Source of the DNA: Candidatus Woesearchaeota archaeon | GTDB lineage: Archaea > Nanobdellota > Nanobdellia > Woesearchaeales > JAFCFN01 | Assembly: GCA_017608625.1 (NCBI GenBank) | Contig: JAFCFN010000006.1 | Location: forward strand, 295-64,294 | Direction of reading: 5' to 3' | Length of the DNA stretch: 64,000 nt | In this document: in pieces, positions 8,806 to 57,288 of the stretch | Layout: every line of letters starts with the position of its first letter | Numbering within the stretch: position 1 is the stretch's first letter | Position numbers and translations under genes: made by a program | The notes under the pieces: model-generated | Told to the model about the DNA's origin: nothing | What the model saw: the letters and a program-made list of their open reading frames with translations, nothing else | The model's database searches: none

Positions 8806-9393
8806 ATGGAGAAATCTAAAAAAAGATTGATGCAAGGATTAAGTGTTGAAATAAATAACTGCAAAAAATGCGAGTTATGGAAAACAAGAACAAATCCTGT
8901 TATTGGGGAAGGGTCAGTTGATGCAAGAATAATGTTTATCGGAGAAGCTCCAGGTTATAATGAGGATAAAACAGGACATCCTTTTTGTGGAGCAGCTGGA
9001 AAAATTTTGGATAAAATTTTAGTGTCTATTGGATTTAAAAGAGAAGAGATTTATATCACAAATATTTTAAAATGCAGGCCTCCAGGAAATAGAAATCCTA
9101 CGAAAGAAGAGATAGATGCCTGCAGCTCTTACCTTGATATGCAAATTGAGATTATTAAGCCTAAGATAATCTGTTCTTTAGGCAATTTTGCAACTGCCTA
9201 TGTAATGGAAAAATTCGGTTTAAAAGAGAAAGTACAAGGAATAAGCAGGATTCATGGAAAGGTTTTTTTACATAACACCCTTTTTGGCCCTATAAAAATT
9301 ATTCCTTTCTATCATCCTGCTGTTGCTGTTTATAATATGAATATGTTAGATGTGCTTAAAAAGGATTTTGCTGTTTTAAAACAAGTAAGATGA
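8806..9393 (+). CDS. udg: uracil-DNA glycosylase family 4
   Basis: 'GEGSVDARIMFIGEAPG' and 'HPFCGAAG' family-4 UDG motifs. Confidence 0.8.
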   Translation: MEKSKKRLMQGLSVEINNCKKCELWKTRTNPVIGEGSVDARIMFIGEAPGYNEDKTGHPFCGAAGKILDKILVSIGFKREEIYITNILKCRPPGNRNPTKEEIDACSSYLDMQIEIIKPKIICSLGNFATAYVMEKFGLKEKVQGISRIHGKVFLHNTLFGPIKIIPFYHPAVAVYNMNMLDVLKKDFAVLKQVR

Positions 9394-9508
9394 GAATAGC
9401 TGTAACAGGCGGGAAAAAAATAAAAATTCAAAACTTTGTTTTGAATTTTATCCTCCCCACTAGTACACAACTGGGTGAGTGTCCCGCCCCGACACAAGAT
9501 GTTTTAAG

Positions 9509-10339
9509 ATGAAGATCGCTATAACGGGTGGGAAAGGAGGAACAGGCAAAAGTACAGTAGCAACAGCACTGGCGGTTGAGCTAGCGAAATCTAAAAAAGT
9601 TCTTCTAATGGATGCAGATACAGACTGCCCAAATGATCACTTAATTCTTTCAATAAAAAGAAAAAAGGAAAATGATATTTTTCAATTAATGCCAAAATGG
9701 GATTTCAGAAAATGCGTCAAATGTGGCAAATGTGCCCAAGTATGTAAAGAAAATGCCATTCTATTTGTAAAAGGAAAATATCCTATATTTGTTCCGGATT
9801 TATGCACTGGCTGTGGAGCTTGTATTTTGGCTTGTCCAACAAAAGCAATAAGCAAAGATAAACAAATAATAGGAACAATCTATTCTGGAACTGGTTATGG
9901 AGTTGATTTATTGACAGCAGAAATGAGAATTGGTTATGAGGAAGCCTCTCCAATTGTGAATGCCTTGAAGAAATTTTCTTCAAAAAAAGAAAAGAAATAT
10001 GATTATATCATTGTTGATACAGCAGCTGGAACTCACTGCAATGTGATCTCTGCTTTATTAGGATGTAATCTAGCAATAGTTGTTACAGAACCAACACCCT
10101 TAGCAGCAGCTGATTTGAATTTAATACTTCAGTTATGCAAAGTATTGAAAGTTCCCACTACTGTTGTTCTAAACAGATCAAATATTGGCAATAAACAACT
10201 CATTGAAAAGATAATTAGAAAATACAAAACAAAAATAATAGCAGAAATTCCATATAAAAAAGAAATCTTAGAAGCGTACTCAAGAGGGAAACCAATTAAA
10301 GATAAATCAATAACTCAAATTATAGAATCAATAAAATGA
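9509..10339 (+). CDS. MinD/ParA-superfamily P-loop ATPase with 4Fe-4S ferredoxin insert
   Basis: 'KIAITGGKGGTGKST' deviant Walker A; CxxCxxCxxxC clusters; ATG at 9509 preferred over track GTG 9479. Confidence 0.7.
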   Translation: MKIAITGGKGGTGKSTVATALAVELAKSKKVLLMDADTDCPNDHLILSIKRKKENDIFQLMPKWDFRKCVKCGKCAQVCKENAILFVKGKYPIFVPDLCTGCGACILACPTKAISKDKQIIGTIYSGTGYGVDLLTAEMRIGYEEASPIVNALKKFSSKKEKKYDYIIVDTAAGTHCNVISALLGCNLAIVVTEPTPLAAADLNLILQLCKVLKVPTTVVLNRSNIGNKQLIEKIIRKYKTKIIAEIPYKKEILEAYSRGKPIKDKSITQIIESIK

Positions 10340-12703: not shown

Positions 12704-12988
12704 ATGTTGTCTCAAATACCAATTGATCTGAAGAAATTAGATAAAAAGAATATTGATAGAGAGATTTTGAGAGTAGGAATGATAGCAGAGTTGGATGCAG
12801 TAAATCTTTATGAACAGCTAGCAGCAATGACTCAGGATAAAAAAATAAAAGCAATTCTTTTAGATATTGCAAAAGAAGAGAAAACACATGTAGGAGAGTT
12901 TCAGGCATTATTATTAAAGAGAGATAAGGAACAAATCAAGGAATTAGAAGCTGGTAAAAAGGAAGTCGAAGATAAAGTTAAAGAGTAA
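12704..12988 (+). CDS. ferritin-like/rubrerythrin-like small protein
   Basis: 'ELDAVNLYEQLA' and 'EEKTHVGEF' diiron-type ExxH-like motifs. Confidence 0.45.
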   Translation: MLSQIPIDLKKLDKKNIDREILRVGMIAELDAVNLYEQLAAMTQDKKIKAILLDIAKEEKTHVGEFQALLLKRDKEQIKELEAGKKEVEDKVKE

Positions 12989-16696: not shown

Positions 16697-16786
16697 CGGG
16701 CCTGAGGAGATTCGAACTCCTGACCTTTACCTATCTTCTATTTAAAGTAGGAGGGTACTGCTCTATCCAGACTGAGCTACAGGCCC
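16697..16786 (-). tRNA. tRNA-Arg(CCU) with 15-nt canonical anticodon-loop intron
   Basis: rc gives GGGCCTG-TA-GCTCAGTCTGGATAGAGC-A-GTACC-CTCCTA[intron]A-GGTAA-AGGTC-AGGAGTTCGAATCTCCT-CAGGCCC-G. Confidence 0.7.
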
Positions 16787-17993: not shown

Positions 17994-18078
17994 AGCCTCA
18001 GGAGGGATTTGAACCCTCGACCTGCTGATTTCTAGCAGAGCTACAAGTCAGCTGCTCTGGCCACTGAGCTACTGAGGC
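17994..18078 (-). tRNA. tRNA-Thr(UGU) with ~12-nt anticodon-loop intron
   Basis: rc gives GCCTCAG-TA-GCTCAGTGGCCAGAGC-A-GCTGA-CTTGTA[GCTCTGCTAGAA]A-TCAGC-AGGTC-GAGGGTTCAAATCCCTC-CTGAGGC-T. Confidence 0.75.
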
Positions 18079-21558: not shown

Positions 21559-21936
21559 CTACTTCTTCTTCATAGCATCAAAAGTAGCTGGCAAATCAAT
21601 TATATATTTGCCATCAGCTAGCTTGAAAACCAAAGGTTCTTTTTTGAATAAATGAACTAAATCCAGTTCATACTTTCCTGGTTTAAGGACTCTTATACTC
21701 TCAAAGTCGAGAACAACTGGCTTTTCTTCATGCTCTTCCTTTCCTATTAGATCAAGAACATCCTTCTCTAGTTCTTGTTTTTGCTTTTCTGTTAGATTAA
21801 TAGTTATTTCTTTGGCTTGCTCTAGTTTTTCTTTTTTAATAAAAAAGAAGAGTCTTGATCCGCAAGAACAGCCTTTGAGAATTTCATTAGCTGTATCATC
21901 ATACAACTTTCCGCATCTTACACACTGGTGTGGCAT
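21559..21936 (-). CDS. Zn-ribbon protein (DUF2072-like)
   Basis: N-terminal 'CVRCG...CSCGS' C4 ribbon, 125 aa. Confidence 0.5.
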   Translation of the reverse strand: MPHQCVRCGKLYDDTANEILKGCSCGSRLFFFIKKEKLEQAKEITINLTEKQKQELEKDVLDLIGKEEHEEKPVVLDFESIRVLKPGKYELDLVHLFKKEPLVFKLADGKYIIDLPATFDAMKKK

Positions 21937-22066
21937 AACCGTAGCCGGTTAACGTCTAGGCGATATTCGATTGCTTCGCAATCGAAATCCCCTGGCCTCG
22001 CTTTGACTTGTCTGCGAGCAAGCGAGCAGACTCGCTTGCAAGTCAGCTCGGCTGTTAACCTCCTCC
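21937..22066 (-). ncRNA. GC-rich structured element between GGAGG and ATG (copy 1, ~130 nt)
   Basis: ~60% GC in 30% GC genome; nested hairpins (GACTTG/CAAGTC, CAAGCGAG/CTCGCTTG, TTCGATTGC/GCAATCGAA); flanking GTTAAC palindromes; 3' 27-mer shared with copy at 43643. Confidence 0.5.
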
Positions 22067-22067
22067 A

Positions 22068-22472
22068 TTATTTCCTCTTTTTCTTAATTTTTCTTCTCTT
22101 TTTTACTTCTTTTGTTAGTAACTCTATTTTCTTTGGATCTTTTTTAATTGATTTGACAACATTTGCAGGTCCAATAATAGTCAACCCTGTTCTATCTCCT
22201 AGTAATGAATTAATTAAACCTTCCTTAAATCTGCTGAACCAAGGAGTATCTTTACTAATGTTAGGATAGATGACACTTAGTTCAATTCCTTTAAATTCTT
22301 TATTTATTTCTTCCATTGTTGCTTTTATTAATTCTGCTTCTTCCTCTTTTTTTAGCCTTCCTTGTAACAACACTATTTTGTTCTCTTTTGCTATATTAAG
22401 CAATTTTCTTATTCTCCCTACAGATGTCAAATCTGCAATTTCATTATAAGGCACAACTTGTAGAGTTACCAT
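22068..22472 (-). CDS. conserved archaeal protein (DUF2073-like), Lys-rich tail
   Basis: 134 aa; sits between small GTPase and Zn-ribbon gene, as in the conserved archaeal triplet. Confidence 0.4.
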   Translation of the reverse strand: MVTLQVVPYNEIADLTSVGRIRKLLNIAKENKIVLLQGRLKKEEEAELIKATMEEINKEFKGIELSVIYPNISKDTPWFSRFKEGLINSLLGDRTGLTIIGPANVVKSIKKDPKKIELLTKEVKKRRKIKKKRK

Positions 22473-29791: not shown

Positions 29792-31082
29792 ATGTTGTTT
29801 GCACATCTAGCAGATTGTCATATAGGATCTTGGAGAGATGAAAAACTAAAGCATTTGAATACAGAGGCGTTTCTTAAAGCAACTCAAATGTGCATGGATA
29901 AAAAGGTTGATTTTATTCTTATATCAGGAGACTTGTTTAATACTTCTCTGCCTTCTGTTGATAATCTAAAAACAATTGTTGGAAGATTAAAGGAATTAAA
30001 AGACAATAATATTCCAGTTTATATTATTGCTGGCTCTCATGATTTTTCTCCATCAGGCAAAACAATTCTAGATGTTCTGGAAAAAGCTGATTTAGTAAGG
30101 AATGTATTTCAAGGAGAAGTTGAGGAAGGTAAACTAAAGCTAAAATTCACAATTGATGAAAAAACAGGAGCAAAAATAACAGGAATAATAGGCAAGAAAG
30201 GAATGTTGGACAGAACATATTATGAACAATTAGATAAAACCGATCTAGAAAAAGAAGATGGCTACAAGATTTTTATGTTTCATACTGCTTTGAGTGAATT
30301 CAAACCAAAAAATCTTGAACAAATGGAGTCTGCTCCACTATCATTTTTACCAAAAAACTTTAATTATTATGCAGGAACCAAAAAATCTTGAACAAATGGA
30401 GTCTGCTCCACTATCATTTTTACCAAAAAACTTTAATTATTATGCAGGGGGGCATGTTCATTATATTTTTAATAAAAAAGAACCTAATTATGGTATGATA
30501 GCTTATCCAGGTTCTTTAAGTCCAACTAATTTTAAGGAGCTAGAAGAAGGTACTCATGGTTTTTATTTTGTTGATAATGACAAAATAGAGTTTGAGAACA
30601 TACAAGTTTATAATGTTTTTTCTATAAATATTGATTGTGAGAACAAAACTCCTCAAGAGGTTGAGGAGGAAATCAAAAAGGAAATAGAAGATAAAGAGTT
30701 CATAAATACAATAGTAACCATAAGGTTACAAGGTTGTCTAAAACAAGGAAAGCCTTCTGACATTAACTTTAAAGAAATATTTTCTATGCTTTATGATAAA
30801 TCAGCTTATTTTGTTATGAGAAACACATCTGCTTTAACATCAAAAGAATTTCAGGAAGTTGAGATTAATGTAGAGCCAAGTGAAAATATGGAAGAGGATT
30901 TAATCAAAGAGCATGTTGGACAGGTGCCTCTATTTGGATTAGATAAAGAAAAAGAGACAGAGTTAACAAAAAGATTAATGAGGATACTTCAGCAGGAAAA
31001 ACAAGAAGGAGAAACAAGAGCTGTTTTTGAAGAAAGAATCAAAAAAGATTTAAATATAATATTAAAACAACTAGGGATCTGA
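29792..31082 (+). pseudogene. mre11: Mre11-like DNA repair nuclease, reading frame broken by 73-bp tandem duplication
   Basis: phosphoesterase motifs 'HLADCHIG', 'GDLFN', 'AGSHD', 'GGHVH'; ORFs 29792..30391 and 30294..31082 join if one repeat copy removed. Confidence 0.65.
30303..30448. repeat. perfect 73-bp tandem duplication (2 copies) inside mre11
   Basis: aaccaaaaaatcttgaacaaatggagtctgctccactatcatttttaccaaaaaactttaattattatgcagg x2. Confidence 0.9.
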
Positions 31083-39747: not shown

Positions 39748-40157
39748 AACCTTATGAATTTTTAGAGCATACAGCTGATGCAAAATTTAGAGCTTATGGC
39801 AAAACTTTAGAGGAAGCATTTCAGAATGCAGCTTATGCTATGACAGATGTTATAACTGATCATACAAAAATCAAGCCTGTTATAGAGAAAACAATTTCTG
39901 TAGAATCAGAAAATAAAGAAGCATTGCTTTATGATTTTTTAGAGCAGTTTCTTATTCTGCTTGACAGCGAGGGTTTTATATTGAACAAAATAGAGGAGGT
40001 AAAGATGCAAAATAATAAAATTACAGCAAAAATTATTGGGGACAACCATCCAGAAGAATATAATATAGAAACTCACATTAAAGCAGTTACTTATGAAGAG
40101 ATGTTTATTAAAAAAGAAAAAGATCAGTGGATTGTGCAGGTTATTGTTGATATTTAG
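39744..40157 (+). CDS. archease
   Basis: 'YEFLEHTADAKFRAYGKTLEEAF' archease N-terminus; overlaps rtcB stop. Confidence 0.8.
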   Translation: MKPYEFLEHTADAKFRAYGKTLEEAFQNAAYAMTDVITDHTKIKPVIEKTISVESENKEALLYDFLEQFLILLDSEGFILNKIEEVKMQNNKITAKIIGDNHPEEYNIETHIKAVTYEEMFIKKEKDQWIVQVIVDI

Positions 40158-43100
40158 ATCTTTAAGCTCACAACTTTACTAATGCCATGGTCTGTCATAC
40201 TGATTCCATAAAGAGAATCAGCTTCTGATATAACTGCATCATTATGGCTTATTAAGATGTATTGAGCTTTTTGGCAGTATTTTCTTATCAATAATGCAAA
40301 TTTTTCTGAGTTGTGTTTATCAAGAGCTGCATCCACTTCATCCAAAATATAGAATGAAGCTGGCTGATATTCTTGTATAGCAAATATAAAAGCAAGTGTT
40401 GTAAGTGTTTTTTCTCCTCCTGACAGGCTTCTTAAATCAATATATTTATTAGAAGTAATTTTAACTTTGATTGTCATTCCTCCTTCAAATGGATTTTGAG
40501 GATTTTCTAGTTGCAAGTATGCATTTCCTTTTTTTGTTAGTGTTGAGAATATTCTCTGGAAATTTTCATTTACTGCGTTGAAAGTCTGCATAAATAAACC
40601 AGATTTCTTTTTCTCAAGTTCCTCCATCATTTTGAGAATATCTTGTTTTTCTTTTTCTATTTTCTCTTTCTTTTCAAGTAATGCATCATACTCTTTAACA
40701 ACCGCGTCATATATTTCTAGTGACTTTAAGTTAACAGAGCCTAGCTGTTCTTTTAATTTTTCAAATTTTGTTATCTCCCTTTTTAACTCATCTTCTGATT
40801 TATTTGTTATTAGTCTTACTCCTTTGTATTGCTCGAAATCCTGCTCAAGTCCTGCTAACTCAGCATTAATCTTTGCCAAATCTAATGAAATGAGATTGTT
40901 TTTGCTTTCTATTTTCCTCATTTCTTCTAATATTGAATCTGTCTTAATCTCGTTCTTTTGTATTATTTCATTTTCTTTTGTTCTTTTATTGAATAATTCC
41001 TTAAATTTAGAATAAAACATTGCTGCTTTTTTCTCTTTTTCAGCAAGCTGTTTGTTCTCATTTGAGATTTTTTTATTTAACTGAGAAATCTCTTCTTCAA
41101 ATTCTTGTTTATATTTTTCATTTTGTTTGATGATTTTTTCTGTATTTAATTTCTCAGCCAGAAGCATGTCATTTATTTGTATGTCAATATTCTTTATTTC
41201 AGCATCCATTTTTATTATCTCCTCTGTTATTGTTGTTTTCTGCTGTTCAAAAGTATTTAACTCAGCCAATAATGCAGGATCTCTTAGTTGAGCAATTTGG
41301 TTTCTTAACTCCTGTTTTTTTATTTTTAGATTTGCTAACTCTTTGTTTTGTTCAAGAATTCTTTCTTTTATTTTCTCAAATTCTTTATCTACATCATTAA
41401 GCTTACTTTTTAGTCTTTGTTTTTCTTGAGTAGAAGCTTCTATGTCAGCACTATCAAGATGCAAGCTTTTTTCTGTTTTGATTATTTCTCCCTCTAAGTT
41501 AGCCTTTTTTTGCCTTAATTCATTTATTTTTTGTTCATTCTCTAGTTTTCTCTTTTCTAATGTATCAATTAGTTTTTGAATTTGACTTATTTTTGATCTT
41601 TGTTGTTCTAATTCTTTGAGTGTATCTTGTTCTTTAAAACCAGATGCTTTTATTTTTCTAAAACCACCATGCATCACTCCTGATATCTCTGCTACATCTC
41701 CATCTAAAGTAACATATTTTGCTTTGTTTATTCCTAGTTTTCTCGCTGTTTCAATATTTTTTACAATAATTGTATTTGCAAACACATAAGAAAATGCTTT
41801 TTTGAATTTTGGATCAAAGCTTACTAAATCAAGAGCCAAGCCATAAACTGAGTTGGTTTTTTTGGCTAAATTCTTAATATTTTGAGGAGTTTCTTTTGCC
41901 TGTATTTTGTTTAAAGGGATAAATGTTGCTGTTCCTAGTTTGTTCTTTTTTAAGTAATTTATGCACTGGTTTGCTGTTTTGTCATCCTCTACTATAATGC
42001 TGTTTAATCTTTGTCCAGCTGCTACTGATAAAGCTGTGCTGAACTGAGAGTCTACTTTTCCTAAGCTGGAGAGTGTTCCATATATGCCTTTTATTCCTGA
42101 TTTTAGCAATGCTCTTATAGGGGCAGGTCCTAAAGATGTTTGCTCTGCTGTCATTGCTCTTGCTTCTAATTTAGCTAGGACCTCATTTAATTTTAGAAGT
42201 TGTTTTCTATTATTAACAAGCTGTAAAGCTAAAGAAGAATCTTCATTTAATAGCTTATTCAGTTCTGAAGTAAGTTCTTTGAATAATTGCTTTTTCTTTT
42301 TTAGCTCATTTAACTGGCTAGAGTGCTCTTTTTCAATTAGTTTCACTTTTGCTATTTTTGAATCAATGCTGTTTATTTCAAATTCTAGTTTATCTTTCTC
42401 TCTTAAGAGATTCTGCTGTTGTTCTATTAGAGAATTAACGTATTTTTGTTTTTCTTCTATTTTCTTATCTAAGTTTTCAACCTCAGCTTCAATAGTAGAT
42501 GTTGCATCAAGCTTATTGTCTGCTTTAAATTTAGCTAGCTTGTTTTCAAGCTCTTTCTTTTGCTTTAGTTTCTTGTTTTTATCTTTAATTAATTCTGCTT
42601 TTTGAGAATTCAGATTTTCGATTTTTTCATCTATTTCTTTTAAGCTTAATTTAAGTTGCTCTTTTCTTTGTTCAATTTTTGCTATCTCGTTTTTGCAAGA
42701 ATTTAATCTTGTTTTCGCAGATGCAATACTTACTTTAAGATTCTCTATTTCTTTTCTGAGGTTAAGCTGTTCTACTTCTCCTTTTTCCTCTATTTCTTTT
42801 GTTATACTATCAATTATTTCCTTTCTTTTTGCTATATCTTCTTTTAACTTGTTTATTTGCGACTGCTGCTTATTTATTAATTCCTTATTTTTGTTTAATT
42901 TTGCTTGCAGTTCATTTTTTGATTTTAGTCTTTTTTGAATTTGTAAATTCAGGTAAGAAGCTCTATTTTGTGTGATTGCATCACTCATCTCTTTATATTT
43001 TAATGCTTGGTCCCTGTCTTTTTTCAATTCTTTAAGATATGTTTTTCTTTCTGTTAAAATGATTTCTGCTTCTTTTAATTTAGCATCTGTTTTTTCTAAT

Positions 43101-43642
43101 TCATGTAAGGCTTTTTGTTTTTTTTCTTCATAAACTGCTATATCTGAGATTTCTTCTAAAATCATTCTTTTTTGCAAAGGAGATAGTTCAACAAATTTTG
43201 TAACATCTCCTTGCAGAACAATATTATGACCATCAGGGTCAATCCTTGCTAGTGCTAATAAGTCTAAAACTTGTTGTCTTGTTCTTACTTTGTCGTTTAT
43301 TTTATATGTGCTTTGTCCATTTTGTTTCACTATTCTTGTTATTTTAACTACATCATCATCTGTTGGAAATATTTTTTGGCTATTGTCAAAGAAGATAGAT
43401 ACTTCTGCTTTTTTTGCTGGCTCTTTATGCTTGCCTCCATTGTATATTAAACCAGAACCTTTCTCTGCTCTTAGACTTTTTGTTGAGCTTTTACCCAGAA
43501 CAAAGCATATAGCATCTCCTATGTTGGATTTTCCTGATCCATTTGGTCCTAGGATGCAGTTAAATCCTCTGTCAAATATCAATTCAGTGTGGTTGGCAAA
43601 GGATTTAAAACCATGCATCACTATTTTCTTAATGTAAGTCAT
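40154..43642 (-). CDS. smc: chromosome segregation protein SMC
   Basis: 1162 aa; N-terminal 'GPNGSGKSN' Walker A, coiled coils, central hinge, C-terminal 'LSGGEKTLTTLAF' signature and 'ILDEVDAALD' Walker B. Confidence 0.85.
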   Translation of the reverse strand: MTYIKKIVMHGFKSFANHTELIFDRGFNCILGPNGSGKSNIGDAICFVLGKSSTKSLRAEKGSGLIYNGGKHKEPAKKAEVSIFFDNSQKIFPTDDDVVKITRIVKQNGQSTYKINDKVRTRQQVLDLLALARIDPDGHNIVLQGDVTKFVELSPLQKRMILEEISDIAVYEEKKQKALHELEKTDAKLKEAEIILTERKTYLKELKKDRDQALKYKEMSDAITQNRASYLNLQIQKRLKSKNELQAKLNKNKELINKQQSQINKLKEDIAKRKEIIDSITKEIEEKGEVEQLNLRKEIENLKVSIASAKTRLNSCKNEIAKIEQRKEQLKLSLKEIDEKIENLNSQKAELIKDKNKKLKQKKELENKLAKFKADNKLDATSTIEAEVENLDKKIEEKQKYVNSLIEQQQNLLREKDKLEFEINSIDSKIAKVKLIEKEHSSQLNELKKKKQLFKELTSELNKLLNEDSSLALQLVNNRKQLLKLNEVLAKLEARAMTAEQTSLGPAPIRALLKSGIKGIYGTLSSLGKVDSQFSTALSVAAGQRLNSIIVEDDKTANQCINYLKKNKLGTATFIPLNKIQAKETPQNIKNLAKKTNSVYGLALDLVSFDPKFKKAFSYVFANTIIVKNIETARKLGINKAKYVTLDGDVAEISGVMHGGFRKIKASGFKEQDTLKELEQQRSKISQIQKLIDTLEKRKLENEQKINELRQKKANLEGEIIKTEKSLHLDSADIEASTQEKQRLKSKLNDVDKEFEKIKERILEQNKELANLKIKKQELRNQIAQLRDPALLAELNTFEQQKTTITEEIIKMDAEIKNIDIQINDMLLAEKLNTEKIIKQNEKYKQEFEEEISQLNKKISNENKQLAEKEKKAAMFYSKFKELFNKRTKENEIIQKNEIKTDSILEEMRKIESKNNLISLDLAKINAELAGLEQDFEQYKGVRLITNKSEDELKREITKFEKLKEQLGSVNLKSLEIYDAVVKEYDALLEKKEKIEKEKQDILKMMEELEKKKSGLFMQTFNAVNENFQRIFSTLTKKGNAYLQLENPQNPFEGGMTIKVKITSNKYIDLRSLSGGEKTLTTLAFIFAIQEYQPASFYILDEVDAALDKHNSEKFALLIRKYCQKAQYILISHNDAVISEADSLYGISMTDHGISKVVSLKI

Positions 43643-43723
43643 AACCGTAGCCAGTTAACGTCTAAGGGAGATGCGCTCGCAACAGAGTTGCTCGTTTAGT
43701 CCCCCTGGTTAACCTTTACCTCC
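43643..43723 (-). ncRNA. GC-rich structured element between GGAGG and smc ATG (copy 2, ~80 nt)
   Basis: shares 27-nt 3' segment and flanking GTTAAC with copy 1; GGGGGA/UCUCCC stem enclosing GCAAC-UCU-GUUGC hairpin. Confidence 0.5.
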
Positions 43724-43896
43724 ATTTCTTTTAGTCTGTCCATAAGTGTTAAAGAAGCATTTAGTGTGTTTATTTCATTTATATCTATTTTGTATTTTCC
43801 ATAATCTAGTCTAGCTTTACACCTAGGGCATACTTTTGGCAGTTTTTCATCCCTTGTCAGCCAACTATACTGGCATTTTTTACATTTTATTAACAT
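43696..43896 (-). CDS. Zn-ribbon small protein; C-terminal codons read from the GC-rich element
   Basis: 'CKKCQY...CPRCKARL'; last 9 codons (MEVKVNQGD) lie in element copy 2. Confidence 0.35.
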   Translation of the reverse strand: MLIKCKKCQYSWLTRDEKLPKVCPRCKARLDYGKYKIDINEINTLNASLTLMDRLKEMEVKVNQGD

Positions 43897-48825: not shown

Positions 48826-49024
48826 GCCGCCGTGGCACAACCTGGTATCACTAAATGTGACAGGAAACTGCGCGGGATTGCTATGAGAAATTGTCTATTC
48901 TCACTAAGATCCCGTTCCCTTCGGGGTATCTGGGTTCAAAAAAGTGAAGTGTAGACAGAGGGGCAGTTACTACAGAGCTGCTTGCTTTGTTTACATCCGG
49001 CTTTTGAAAGTCCCAGCGGCGGCG
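48826..49024 (+). tRNA. tRNA-Ser(GCU)-like, probably three introns (D-loop ~17 nt, anticodon loop ~25 nt, T-loop ~70 nt)
   Basis: acceptor GCCGCCG/CGGCGGC+G; anticodon stem CGGGA/TCCCG with loop TTGCTA[intron]A; variable hairpin TCCC-TTCG-GGGG; T arm CTGGG-TTCAAA[intron]T-CCCAG; exon sum ~87 nt. Confidence 0.5.
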
Positions 49025-49070
49025 TTTATTTTAGTAACTTTTATAAACAATCTTTAATCTAATTCTATTT

Positions 49071-49145
49071 AGCGGGGTGGGGCAGTCTGGAGTGCCCGGA
49101 GGGCCCATAACCCTCAGGTCAGAGGTTCAAATCCTCTCCCCGCTA
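49071..49145 (+). tRNA. initiator tRNA-Met(CAU)
   Basis: AGCGGGG-TG-GGGC-AGTCTGGAGT-GCCC-G-GAGGG-CCCATAA-CCCTC-AGGTC-AGAGG-TTCAAAT-CCTCT-CCCCGCT-A; A1:U72 and three G-C pairs in anticodon stem. Confidence 0.85.
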
Positions 49146-49160
49146 TTTTCCAAAAAAAAG

Positions 49161-57089: not shown

Positions 57090-57232
57090 CTCTTTTTATT
57101 GTTTATGAATATAATATAGGTTTAAAATAGTAATGCTATTTATAAATGTTTTGGTTAATATAAAGATAAAATCAGTTCTGCAAGAGTGATAAAATATCAG
57201 AAAGCTTTATAAAAATAAAAAGTGTAAAATTA

Positions 57233-57288
57233 TACAGGAGGGGGCTGTGAGCAAACAATATACAGGAGGGGGCTGTGAGCAAACAATA
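57233..57288. repeat. perfect 28-bp tandem duplication (tacaggagggggctgtgagcaaacaata x2)
   Basis: seen in sequence; overlaps predicted start of downstream ORF. Confidence 0.9.

Follow-up and report, generated by a model that had tools for sequence, protein, structure and literature searches.

We analysed a 64,000-nucleotide stretch of a Candidatus Woesearchaeota contig (JAFCFN010000006.1), referred to below as the window, which has 31.2% GC overall and carries typical archaeal genes together with intron-containing tRNAs; the best protein matches of the loci described here are to Candidatus Woesearchaeota (DPANN). Two GC-rich inserts lie on the minus strand of this 31% GC contig. The first, c1, is located at the junction between the second and third genes of an OapA-OapB-OapC operon (GTPase, DUF2073 and Zn-ribbon DUF2072 by their Pfam names), and the second, c2, separates a DUF5817-like Zn-ribbon open reading frame (ORF) from smc, which rtcB and archease adjoin. 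Together with one copy from another metagenome (c3, in L003) and one from a more distant relative (c4, in L102/L103) they make up family A, whose plan reads, in order, ATG, GGAGG, RGTTAAC, one or more variable GC-rich hairpins, GTTAACY, a small hairpin and the ATG of the downstream gene. Here we show, by comparison with about 80 Woesearchaeota loci (about 1.2 Mb; labelled L001 and so on), that c1 to c4 are insertions placed exactly on an ATG that overlaps or abuts the upstream stop codon, always in the sense orientation, and we weigh what kind of element they may be.

Two inserts that end in a start codon

The features of c1 are as follows.

21934..22068, minus strand: c1, family-A element, left-border ATG and rebuilt OapC start included; 132 nt are inserted compared with empty junctions
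22068..22472, minus strand: OapB (DUF2073), upstream of c1, stop codon retained
22066..22068, minus strand: ATG1, the left-border ATG, overlapping the OapB stop TAA (22068-22070)
22059..22066, minus strand: 5' arm, with a Shine-Dalgarno (SD)-like run, GGAGGAGG
22054..22060, minus strand: 5' strand of helix P1, GGUUAAC
21958..22053, minus strand: variable GC-rich interior, two long near-perfect hairpins
21954..21957, minus strand: AGAC, unpaired, linking P1 to the interior hairpin in c1, c2 and c3 and missing from c4
21947..21953, minus strand: 3' strand of P1, GUUAACC, pairing with 22054-22060
21936..21951, minus strand: terminal hairpin P2, UAACCG-GCUA-CGGUUA, overlapping P1 and including the A of the start codon
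21934..21936, minus strand: ATG2, the now predicted start codon of OapC (OapC, 21559-21936)

A sequence-only reading of the window had drawn attention to a GC-rich stretch in front of the ATG of the Zn-ribbon gene, and the OapB stop is indeed separated from the OapC ATG by 131 nt with 54% GC (60% in the richest 60-nt window). In mRNA sense this gap reads AUG-GAGGAGGUUAAC...CCUAGACGUUAACCGGCUACGGUU-AUG or, in longer form, AAUA-AUG-GAGGAGG-UUAAC ... CCUAGAC-GUUAAC-CGGCUACGGUU-AUG. The same reading had the insert begin at GGAGG; the GGAGG and ATG borders stand, with the refinement that each element has an ATG in front of it as well (22066-22068 and 43723-43725). A native AGAGG SD sequence is retained 5 nt upstream of ATG1, which opens an upstream ORF (uORF) of 39 codons whose TAA lies 12 nt before ATG2. 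The interior, whose second hairpin has a GCGAAGC apex, is unrelated in sequence to those of c2, c3 and c4, and the hairpins already noticed in c1 are borne out by a predicted fold of -61.9 kcal/mol (z = -5.2 relative to shuffles).

The second insert is built on the same lines.

43640..43725, minus strand: c2, family-A element between the DUF5817-like Zn-ribbon ORF and smc; an 83-nt insert
43696..43896, minus strand: upstream 66-aa Zn-ribbon ORF, own stop lost at insertion
43719..43725, minus strand: left border, ATG1 (43723-43725) and GGAGG (43719-43723)
43708..43714, minus strand: 5' strand of P1, GGUUAAC
43664..43707, minus strand: variable interior, a GGGGGA/UCUCCC stem (one G.U pair) around GCAAC-UCU-GUUGC
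43642..43663, minus strand: 3' arm, with AGAC (43660-43663), the 3' strand of P1, GUUAACU (43653-43659), and P2, UAACUG-GCUA-CGGUUA (43642-43657)
43640..43642, minus strand: ATG2, the smc start codon (smc, 40154-43642)

The interior of c2 supplies the TAA that now terminates the upstream Zn-ribbon ORF, the last nine codons of which (MEVKVNQGD) are read from the element. The likeness between the two inserts is concentrated at their 3' ends, where the 27-mer CYTAGACGTTAACYGGCTACGGTTATG, which runs through the start codon, occurs at two sites in the window (21934-21960 and 43640-43666, both minus strand) with differences at 2 of 27 positions and was matched in 0 of 100 dinucleotide shuffles. Both copies are bracketed by GTTAAC, which is seen 13 times in the 64 kb against 21.7 expected, and the two bracketing pairs are the only ones in the window less than 250 nt apart. 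Each of these resemblances had been pointed out from the letters alone and holds.

The sequence-only reading had named two findings that would count against a genuine insert, an assembly chimera and a misannotated coding sequence. c1 is identical in two assemblies (L001 and L002), and c2 occurs on at least five contigs and is identical in L096; both are thus unchanged in independent assemblies and are therefore not chimeras. An N-terminal extension or other misannotated coding sequence is ruled out by the reading frame: ATG1 and ATG2 are out of frame in three of the four family-A copies and in frame only in c1, where a TAA stands between them. Orthologues lacking the insert, moreover, have the same first residues (MPHQC, MT.IKK and M(S/T)N..).

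Empty junctions in relatives

The three host junctions are all found without an insert in close relatives, with the stop codon overlapping or touching the start codon (TAAATG, ATGA or TAATG).

OapB-OapC, in L006 and L007: AAGAGGAAATAA-ATG-CCC, with AAGAGGAAATAAATGCCC at the junction and no insert
Zn-ribbon ORF-smc, in L088: AAAGA-ATGA-CA (AAAGAATGACA)
Zn-ribbon ORF-smc, in L089: AGA-TAATG-ACT (AGATAATGACT)
Nop10-PAC2, in the window, L091 and L092: TT-ATGA-G

The OapB-OapC gap is 4 nt or shorter in 42 of the roughly 80 Woesearchaeota loci. Because the junctions of relatives are this tight, the elements are insertions on the start codons of translationally coupled genes, and the orthologous loci without an insert that the earlier reading had proposed looking for exist at all three junctions. 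Its suggestion of a small non-autonomous insertion is likewise strengthened, since the relatives' junctions are empty and near-identical arms recur at unrelated junctions in different organisms.

The third copy, c3, lies between the Nop10 and PAC2 genes and reads AAUA-AUG-UGGGGGUAAAAAGUUAAC, an 8-bp hairpin, then AGAC-GUUAAC-UGGCUACGGUU-AUG. Its arms match those of c2 without a difference, in all 27 nt at the 3' end and over GGTAAARGTTAAC at the 5' end, even though the PAC2 proteins of their hosts are only 85% identical (P0244) and their interiors are unrelated; the PAC2 junction of the window has no insert. This combination argues for recent mobility. The fourth copy, c4, occupies the same OapB-OapC junction as c1 and reads AUG-GAGGUAAACGGUUAAC, a GC-rich hairpin, then GUUAAC-UGCAUCCAGUU-AUG. 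The hosts of c1 and c4 are 81.5% identical over OapABC, and closer relatives (L006, 87%; L007, 85%) are empty at this junction, so that the presence of c1 and c4 at one place would reflect either independent hits or precise losses.

A left flank of AATG, a right end of (T/A)ATG and sense orientation are common to all four family-A copies and to all three copies of a second family, B, described below; in family A the right end is the element's own ..TTATG. The three nucleotides of the ATG occur at both borders in every copy (4-6 nt in family B), and a target duplication and an element-borne ATG leave the same sequence.

These borders are also what an intron would predict. According to this reading, which had been raised in its bulge-helix-bulge (BHB) form, the transcript would be cut between the two AUGs, by a BHB-type or a new type of splicing, and the ancestral stop/start overlap restored. 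Removal of one ATG together with the element does recreate the ancestral junction exactly, the host has tRNA introns, and rtcB and archease sit beside smc; any insertion flanked by a 3-nt repeat would nevertheless be restored just as exactly. In a strict BHB scan c2 and c3 had no motif and c1 had chance motifs only, all of them internal, so that the copies have no strict BHB in common; in a relaxed scan at the two ATG borders of c1 to c3, no 4-bp helix was accompanied by the two supporting helices. An intron would also have no need of its own SD sequence and ATG, and the element matches no ribozyme family. We therefore reject a BHB intron for c1 to c3 and hold an intron of any kind to be highly improbable.

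Searches for further copies and a sister family

The search for further copies proposed in the earlier reading was productive in part. A 20-nt core pattern gave one match in JGI metagenomes, which is c3, and c4 came to light in a more distant OapC relative (L102/L103); the same core had no match in 185,579 GTDB species genomes. The family-A pattern had no match in phage and plasmid sets and, in IMG/VR, none at first and then five chance matches inside coding sequence. Neither the 80 Woesearchaeota loci nor about 20 kb of additional flank from the same genome held a further family-A copy, and a structure-based scan for hairpins abutting start codons was too unspecific to help. The density of the family is two copies in about 85 kb of this genome.

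The inserts of family B (L004 9918-10000, which equals L005 3345-3427; L102 2757-2848; L103 571-662) follow the same ATG-to-ATG logic. A block of 50 nt is 96% identical between copies at the OapB-OapC junction (L004/L005) and at the OapA-OapB junction (L102/L103), and the plan runs ATG-CGAG.., a GRA-triloop hairpin, a U7-9 tract, CC-RTTAAC, a hairpin with GCGAAGC and the SD sequence GGAGG, and GGTTAW-ATG. Starting at the left ATG, a uORF runs through the entire element and terminates exactly at or over the new ATG (TAAATG, ATGGTAA or ATGGTGA). Since b1, at OapB-OapC, and b2 read the common block in different frames, it is an open relay frame and not a peptide that is conserved. We had considered the L004 insert as a decayed c1 and rejected this in favour of a separate family; with family B, the ATG-to-ATG design is seen to recur beyond family A. 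With c1, c4 and b1, the OapB-OapC junction has gained structured inserts at least three times.

Unrelated inserts of 60-320 nt are present at the OapB-OapC junction of many other Woesearchaeota (L011 1120-1207; L027 2458-2578; L035 around 9885-10012; also L010, L039, L056, L059 and L086), and those of L011, L027 and L035 are flanked by a direct repeat of 12-25 nt of the OapC start (ATGCCACA..). Duplication of gene 5' ends around inserts is not supported as a general process in the genome, where only 7 of 358 repeat pairs qualify.

Two predicted, mutually exclusive helices at the new start codon

In each of the four copies P1 (RGUUAAC/GUUAACY) can pair at 7 of 7 positions, with G-C, G.U or A-U as the outermost pair, and closes the variable interior, which consists of long near-perfect hairpins. 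P2 (UAACYG-N4-CRGUUA) forms 6 of 6 pairs in all four, with one position C-G, U.G or U-A, and ends in the A of the AUG. Because they have nucleotides in common, P1 and P2 exclude one another. Between GTTAAC and ATG, c4 differs from c1 to c3 at 5 of 11 nt, three of them in the P2 loop and one preserving a pair, so that the stem is kept with U-A in place of C-G. All G.U pairs, read directly from c1, c2 and c3, are on the sense strand, which points to this as the folding strand since each would be an A.C mismatch on the other. When flanks are included, P1 is predicted for c1 (p about 1.0), while P2 is favoured over P1 in c2 and c3 (about 0.9 against 0.06).

These features bear on the earlier proposal of a cis-acting RNA leader. 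In this account the insert would primarily be a translation-control or coupling-relay leader that sets the ratio of downstream to upstream product, its mobility being only the way it arrived; the choice between P1 and P2 could serve as a switch, or the hairpin could stabilise the mRNA or mark a site for its processing. The sense-strand folding, the retention of the P2 stem in c4 while its loop and one pair change, the exclusive helices with predicted occupancies that differ between copies, the repeated arrival of structured inserts at OapB-OapC and the family-B uORF that ends at or over ATG2 all speak for it. Against it, OapC, SMC and PAC2 have no functional relationship to one another, the element is missing from the nearest relatives, and the uORF layout is inconsistent within family A. 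Both helices are fully paired in four of four copies and one pair changes, yet covariation did not exceed a shuffle control (378/500), so that with four sequences it is suggestive only and the covariance support called for earlier is lacking; c2 alone folds no better than shuffles (z = -0.5). We saw no ligand- or protein-binding motif and, by eye, no consistent H/ACA, C/D or K-turn motif. A gathering-threshold Rfam scan of the whole window returned only three tRNAs, and scans at E values up to 10 gave nothing for c1 and two chance-level matches beside or at the edge of c2, which sets aside known Rfam families and agrees with the earlier statement that no described element was recognised. We regard a primarily regulatory RNA as unlikely, though worth keeping in view, either as a leader or in the switch and stabiliser variants.

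Two other RNA candidates were set aside. ARAGORN found only three ordinary tRNAs, all elsewhere in the window, which leaves no tRNA, tRNA-like or split-tRNA gene here, and an antisense sRNA is unlikely because conservation ends exactly at the ATG and there is no common promoter.

Possible routes of initiation at the rebuilt start

The 5' arms of c2, c3 and c4 carry GGAGGU or GGGGGU followed by an A-rich spacer, and so look like an ordinary ribosome-binding site of the host genome, in which about 40% of genes have GAGG or GGAGG 4-10 nt upstream of the start (for example GGAGGTTAAAAA-ATG) and the genes at 12704, 7273 and 5037 have GGAGGT(T/A)AAA..ATG. Since the left border is an ATG and the right end brings its own GTTATG, each copy carries a strong SD sequence at its 5' end and a replacement start at its 3' end. 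Between the two lie either the palindromic GTTAAC half-sites that close the variable GC-rich domain (P1) or the small hairpin that abuts the AUG (P2).

Ribosomes may reach ATG2 by either of two routes. In phage T4 genes 38 and 25 the SD sequence lies far upstream of the AUG and an intervening hairpin bridges the distance. P1 could work in the same manner, as the earlier reading had supposed when it suggested that pairing of the GTTAAC sites brings GGAGG next to the AUG, although in family A it is an inserted, repeated element that provides the arrangement, the SD-to-AUG spacing with P1 closed is 11-14 nt against the 4-10 nt usual in the genome, and the helix is disfavoured in c2 and c3. The structure predictions are thus compatible with bridging in c1 and fit c2 and c3 poorly. 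The second route, re-initiation after a uORF, would suit the layout of c1 and family B and suits c2 to c4 poorly. Yeast mitochondrial GC clusters and 'byp' elements offer another parallel: they are GC-rich palindromic mini-inserts with short direct-repeat flanks that translation tolerates. Family A resembles them as GC-rich palindromic inserts in an AT-rich compact genome, but those elements sit inside coding sequence and are bypassed, whereas family A would re-create an initiation site at a start codon. Translational bypass between the two GTTAAC sites was rejected, because the frame after the second GTTAAC, followed by hand, is not that of the gene. The element is no frameshift site either.

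Comparison with known mobile elements

The c1/c2 family looks like a new intercistronic insertion element akin to repetitive extragenic palindromic (REP) sequences or transposable elements of the miniature inverted-repeat type (MITEs), to judge from its sequence organisation. REP/BIME, ERIC/IRU and Neisseria Correia elements can change the mRNA stability or translation of neighbouring cistrons. Like them, family A is short (about 35-160 nt for the group), non-coding, hairpin-forming and patchily distributed among close relatives, is inserted between operon genes, where it would be co-transcribed, and has few or no protein-coding requirements. It differs in being archaeal (DPANN), in landing on a start codon and in supplying an SD sequence and an ATG, as well as in having only its arms conserved, with no TA duplication, GTAG head or RAYT-like gene seen.

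The boxes of attC sites, RYYYAAC...GTTRRRY, invite comparison with P1. If family A were an ORF-less cassette of this type, the site would be folded as a single strand for an IntI-like tyrosine recombinase. Its RGTTAAC...GTTAACY boxes pair at 7 of 7 positions and resemble this consensus, with one departure in each box; they enclose a variable hairpin at a box-to-box length of 62-114 nt, which is similar to attC, an unpaired joint is present in c1, c2 and c3, and the boxes are conserved while the interiors are unrelated, with the structure, not the sequence, conserved. Integrons and attC clusters have been reported in archaea, including GTDB Nanoarchaeota (PMC9668308). However, attC recombines on its bottom strand, whose marks are the L''/L' boxes, extrahelical bases and an unpaired central spacer (PMC8946536). 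Family A lacks L boxes and shows no consistent extrahelical bases, c2 and c3 have perfect inner stems, c4 is without the unpaired spacer, and the wobble pairs favour the sense (top) strand. Its borders lie at ATG and not at G|TT, the SD sequence, the P2 hairpin and the ATG are conserved outside the boxes, and the copies are single sites inside conserved core operons, with no array. No intI or other Phage_integrase-type protein was seen in Pfam lists and scans over about 100 kb, and the arms were not found in the published supplements on archaeal integrons. The resemblance is architectural only; we do not assign the element as attC, and give such an origin very little credence.

Another parallel is provided by elements of the IS200/IS605 type, which insert 3' of a specific tetra- or pentanucleotide without duplicating it, carry a related motif at the right end and have subterminal hairpins. 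In such a scheme family A would be a palindrome-associated element of a Y1 HUH transposase that inserts 3' of AATG and ends in its own (T/A)ATG. All seven left flanks are AATG and the right ends TATG or AATG, there are no terminal inverted repeats (TIRs) and no clear target-site duplication (TSD), the right end has a subterminal hairpin whose structure is conserved, the element is very small, as would suit a single-stranded intermediate, c1 and c2 lie on the same strand, and the empty sites of nearer relatives would follow from precise excision. GCGAAGC, which caps a hairpin in c1, is an exceptionally stable DNA mini-hairpin. On the other side, the palindrome-associated transposable elements derived from IS200/IS605 have similar subterminal hairpins at both ends, while in family A only the right-end P2 is conserved, with no matching hairpin on the left and an interior that differs in every copy; no Y1_Tnp (tnpA) or TnpB was present in the Pfam lists of the sequence compared, and no pairing of a guide with a cleavage site is evident. 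An IS200/IS605-like origin is improbable, and such a single-strand route is at the same time our leading guess for how the element moves.

Other features of the window

GCGAAGC is present at the hairpin apices of intergenic inserts and beside tRNA genes, at 21973-21979 in the window, at 9923, 9940 and 9977 in L004, and in L094 (about 7420), L036 (5196) and L006 (407). The tRNA genes at 16697-16786 and 17994-18078 (minus strand) have introns of 17 and 14 nt after the anticodon, and ARAGORN could not name the second anticodon. The RtcB of L088 (15262-18129) contains an intein with a LAGLIDADG domain and is 955 aa long compared with 477 aa in the window, and some Woesearchaeota SMC proteins (P0206 and P0234; about 1700 aa) also carry inteins.

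At 9390-9535 (plus strand) a ParA/CbiA-like gene has a duplicated 5' end: ATGAGAATAGCTGTAACAGGCGGGAAA overlaps the UDG stop, and an insert of about 90 nt, comprising an AT-rich perfect palindrome and a GC-rich part with CCTCCCC, precedes the working start ATGAAGATCGCTATAACGGGTGGGAAA; nothing in this segment was significant in Rfam. Just upstream of the initiator tRNA-Met (49070-49146), at 48826-49018 (plus strand), some 190 nt reach a GC content of up to 65%; this segment is closed by GCCGCCG...CGGCGGC and contains GAAAGUCC. It has no Rfam match even at E = 10; a structured RNA that has gone unrecognised is the probable explanation, and a reduced RNA like that of RNase P or SRP is one candidate. 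At 30303-30448 (plus strand) a 73-bp unit is perfectly duplicated in tandem (2.0 copies, 100% identity) across the start of the ORF at 30369-31082, a duplication that could be recent or an assembly artefact. Finally, a perfect 28-nt tandem repeat at 57231-57288 (plus strand; 2.1 copies of TATACAGGAGGGGGCTGTGAGCAAACAA) lies in a 955-nt stretch with no called ORF of at least 80 codons.

Discussion

The feature described here is real and reproducible, and its start-codon-restoring design is unusual and thinly sampled (four copies and a sister family). On balance we favour, by a little over even chances, the reading of family A as a non-autonomous mobile element that is tolerated because the translation start is rebuilt. 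In that reading it would be the element-borne start that accounts for tolerance at a start codon.

Several observations weigh against this reading. The known family-A copies number only four. Pfam lists and scans of the sequence compared showed neither a transposase or integrase nor an autonomous partner. The ends, ATGGAGG... and ...GGTTATG, are not inverted repeats; there are no TIRs beyond the internal 7-mer, which is the only inverted repeat, and no clear TSD beyond the ATG. MITEs do not usually combine identical arms with wholly different interiors. As to the rebuilt start, the behaviour of the uORF is unlike between family-A copies, and the split ribosome-binding site appears weak as a mechanism, given the predicted 11-14 nt spacing and the loss of P1 to P2 in c2 and c3.

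Should family A be a mobile element of this kind, its life cycle might be pictured as follows. Its spread would take place as DNA, probably in the form of a folded single strand or through a recombinase provided in trans. With almost no spacers in the genome, it would persist only at sites where its built-in SD sequence and ATG keep the downstream gene translatable. It would then be transcribed within the operon mRNA, and the downstream cistron would start at the element's AUG, either because the P1 helix brings the SD sequence near the AUG in the manner of a split ribosome-binding site, or because a uORF, short or long, running from the left ATG relays ribosomes to it. As a side effect, genes that had been coupled would become uncoupled, with the downstream gene placed behind a stable hairpin, an outcome that could be neutral or be co-opted to tune expression.

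A bolder version can be framed, in which these would be members of a new selfish class that homes specifically to start codons at overlapping stop/start junctions, guided by the ATG-containing borders and carrying a module of SD sequence, switchable P1/P2 and AUG; we consider it possible but doubtful. The same reservation applies to its further proposal that the family-B relay uORF, which ends on the new AUG, and such modules in general rewire translational coupling in essential operons.

DPANN genomes have almost no intergenic DNA and many stop-to-start overlaps, and how mobile DNA survives in them and how internal cistrons are initiated are little understood. If the mobile-element reading is true, landing on a start codon with a ribosome-binding site and an ATG of its own would solve the problem of having nowhere to insert, and the inserts would constitute a natural experiment in the uncoupling of coupled genes (OapB/OapC, smc and PAC2). 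If they are neutral passengers, they would serve as strain-level markers and as a caution to annotators that GC-rich islands at the gene starts of AT-rich archaea need not be RNA genes. If instead P1/P2 or the relay uORF is functional, families A and B would represent a compact, transferable cassette for translation control in archaea.

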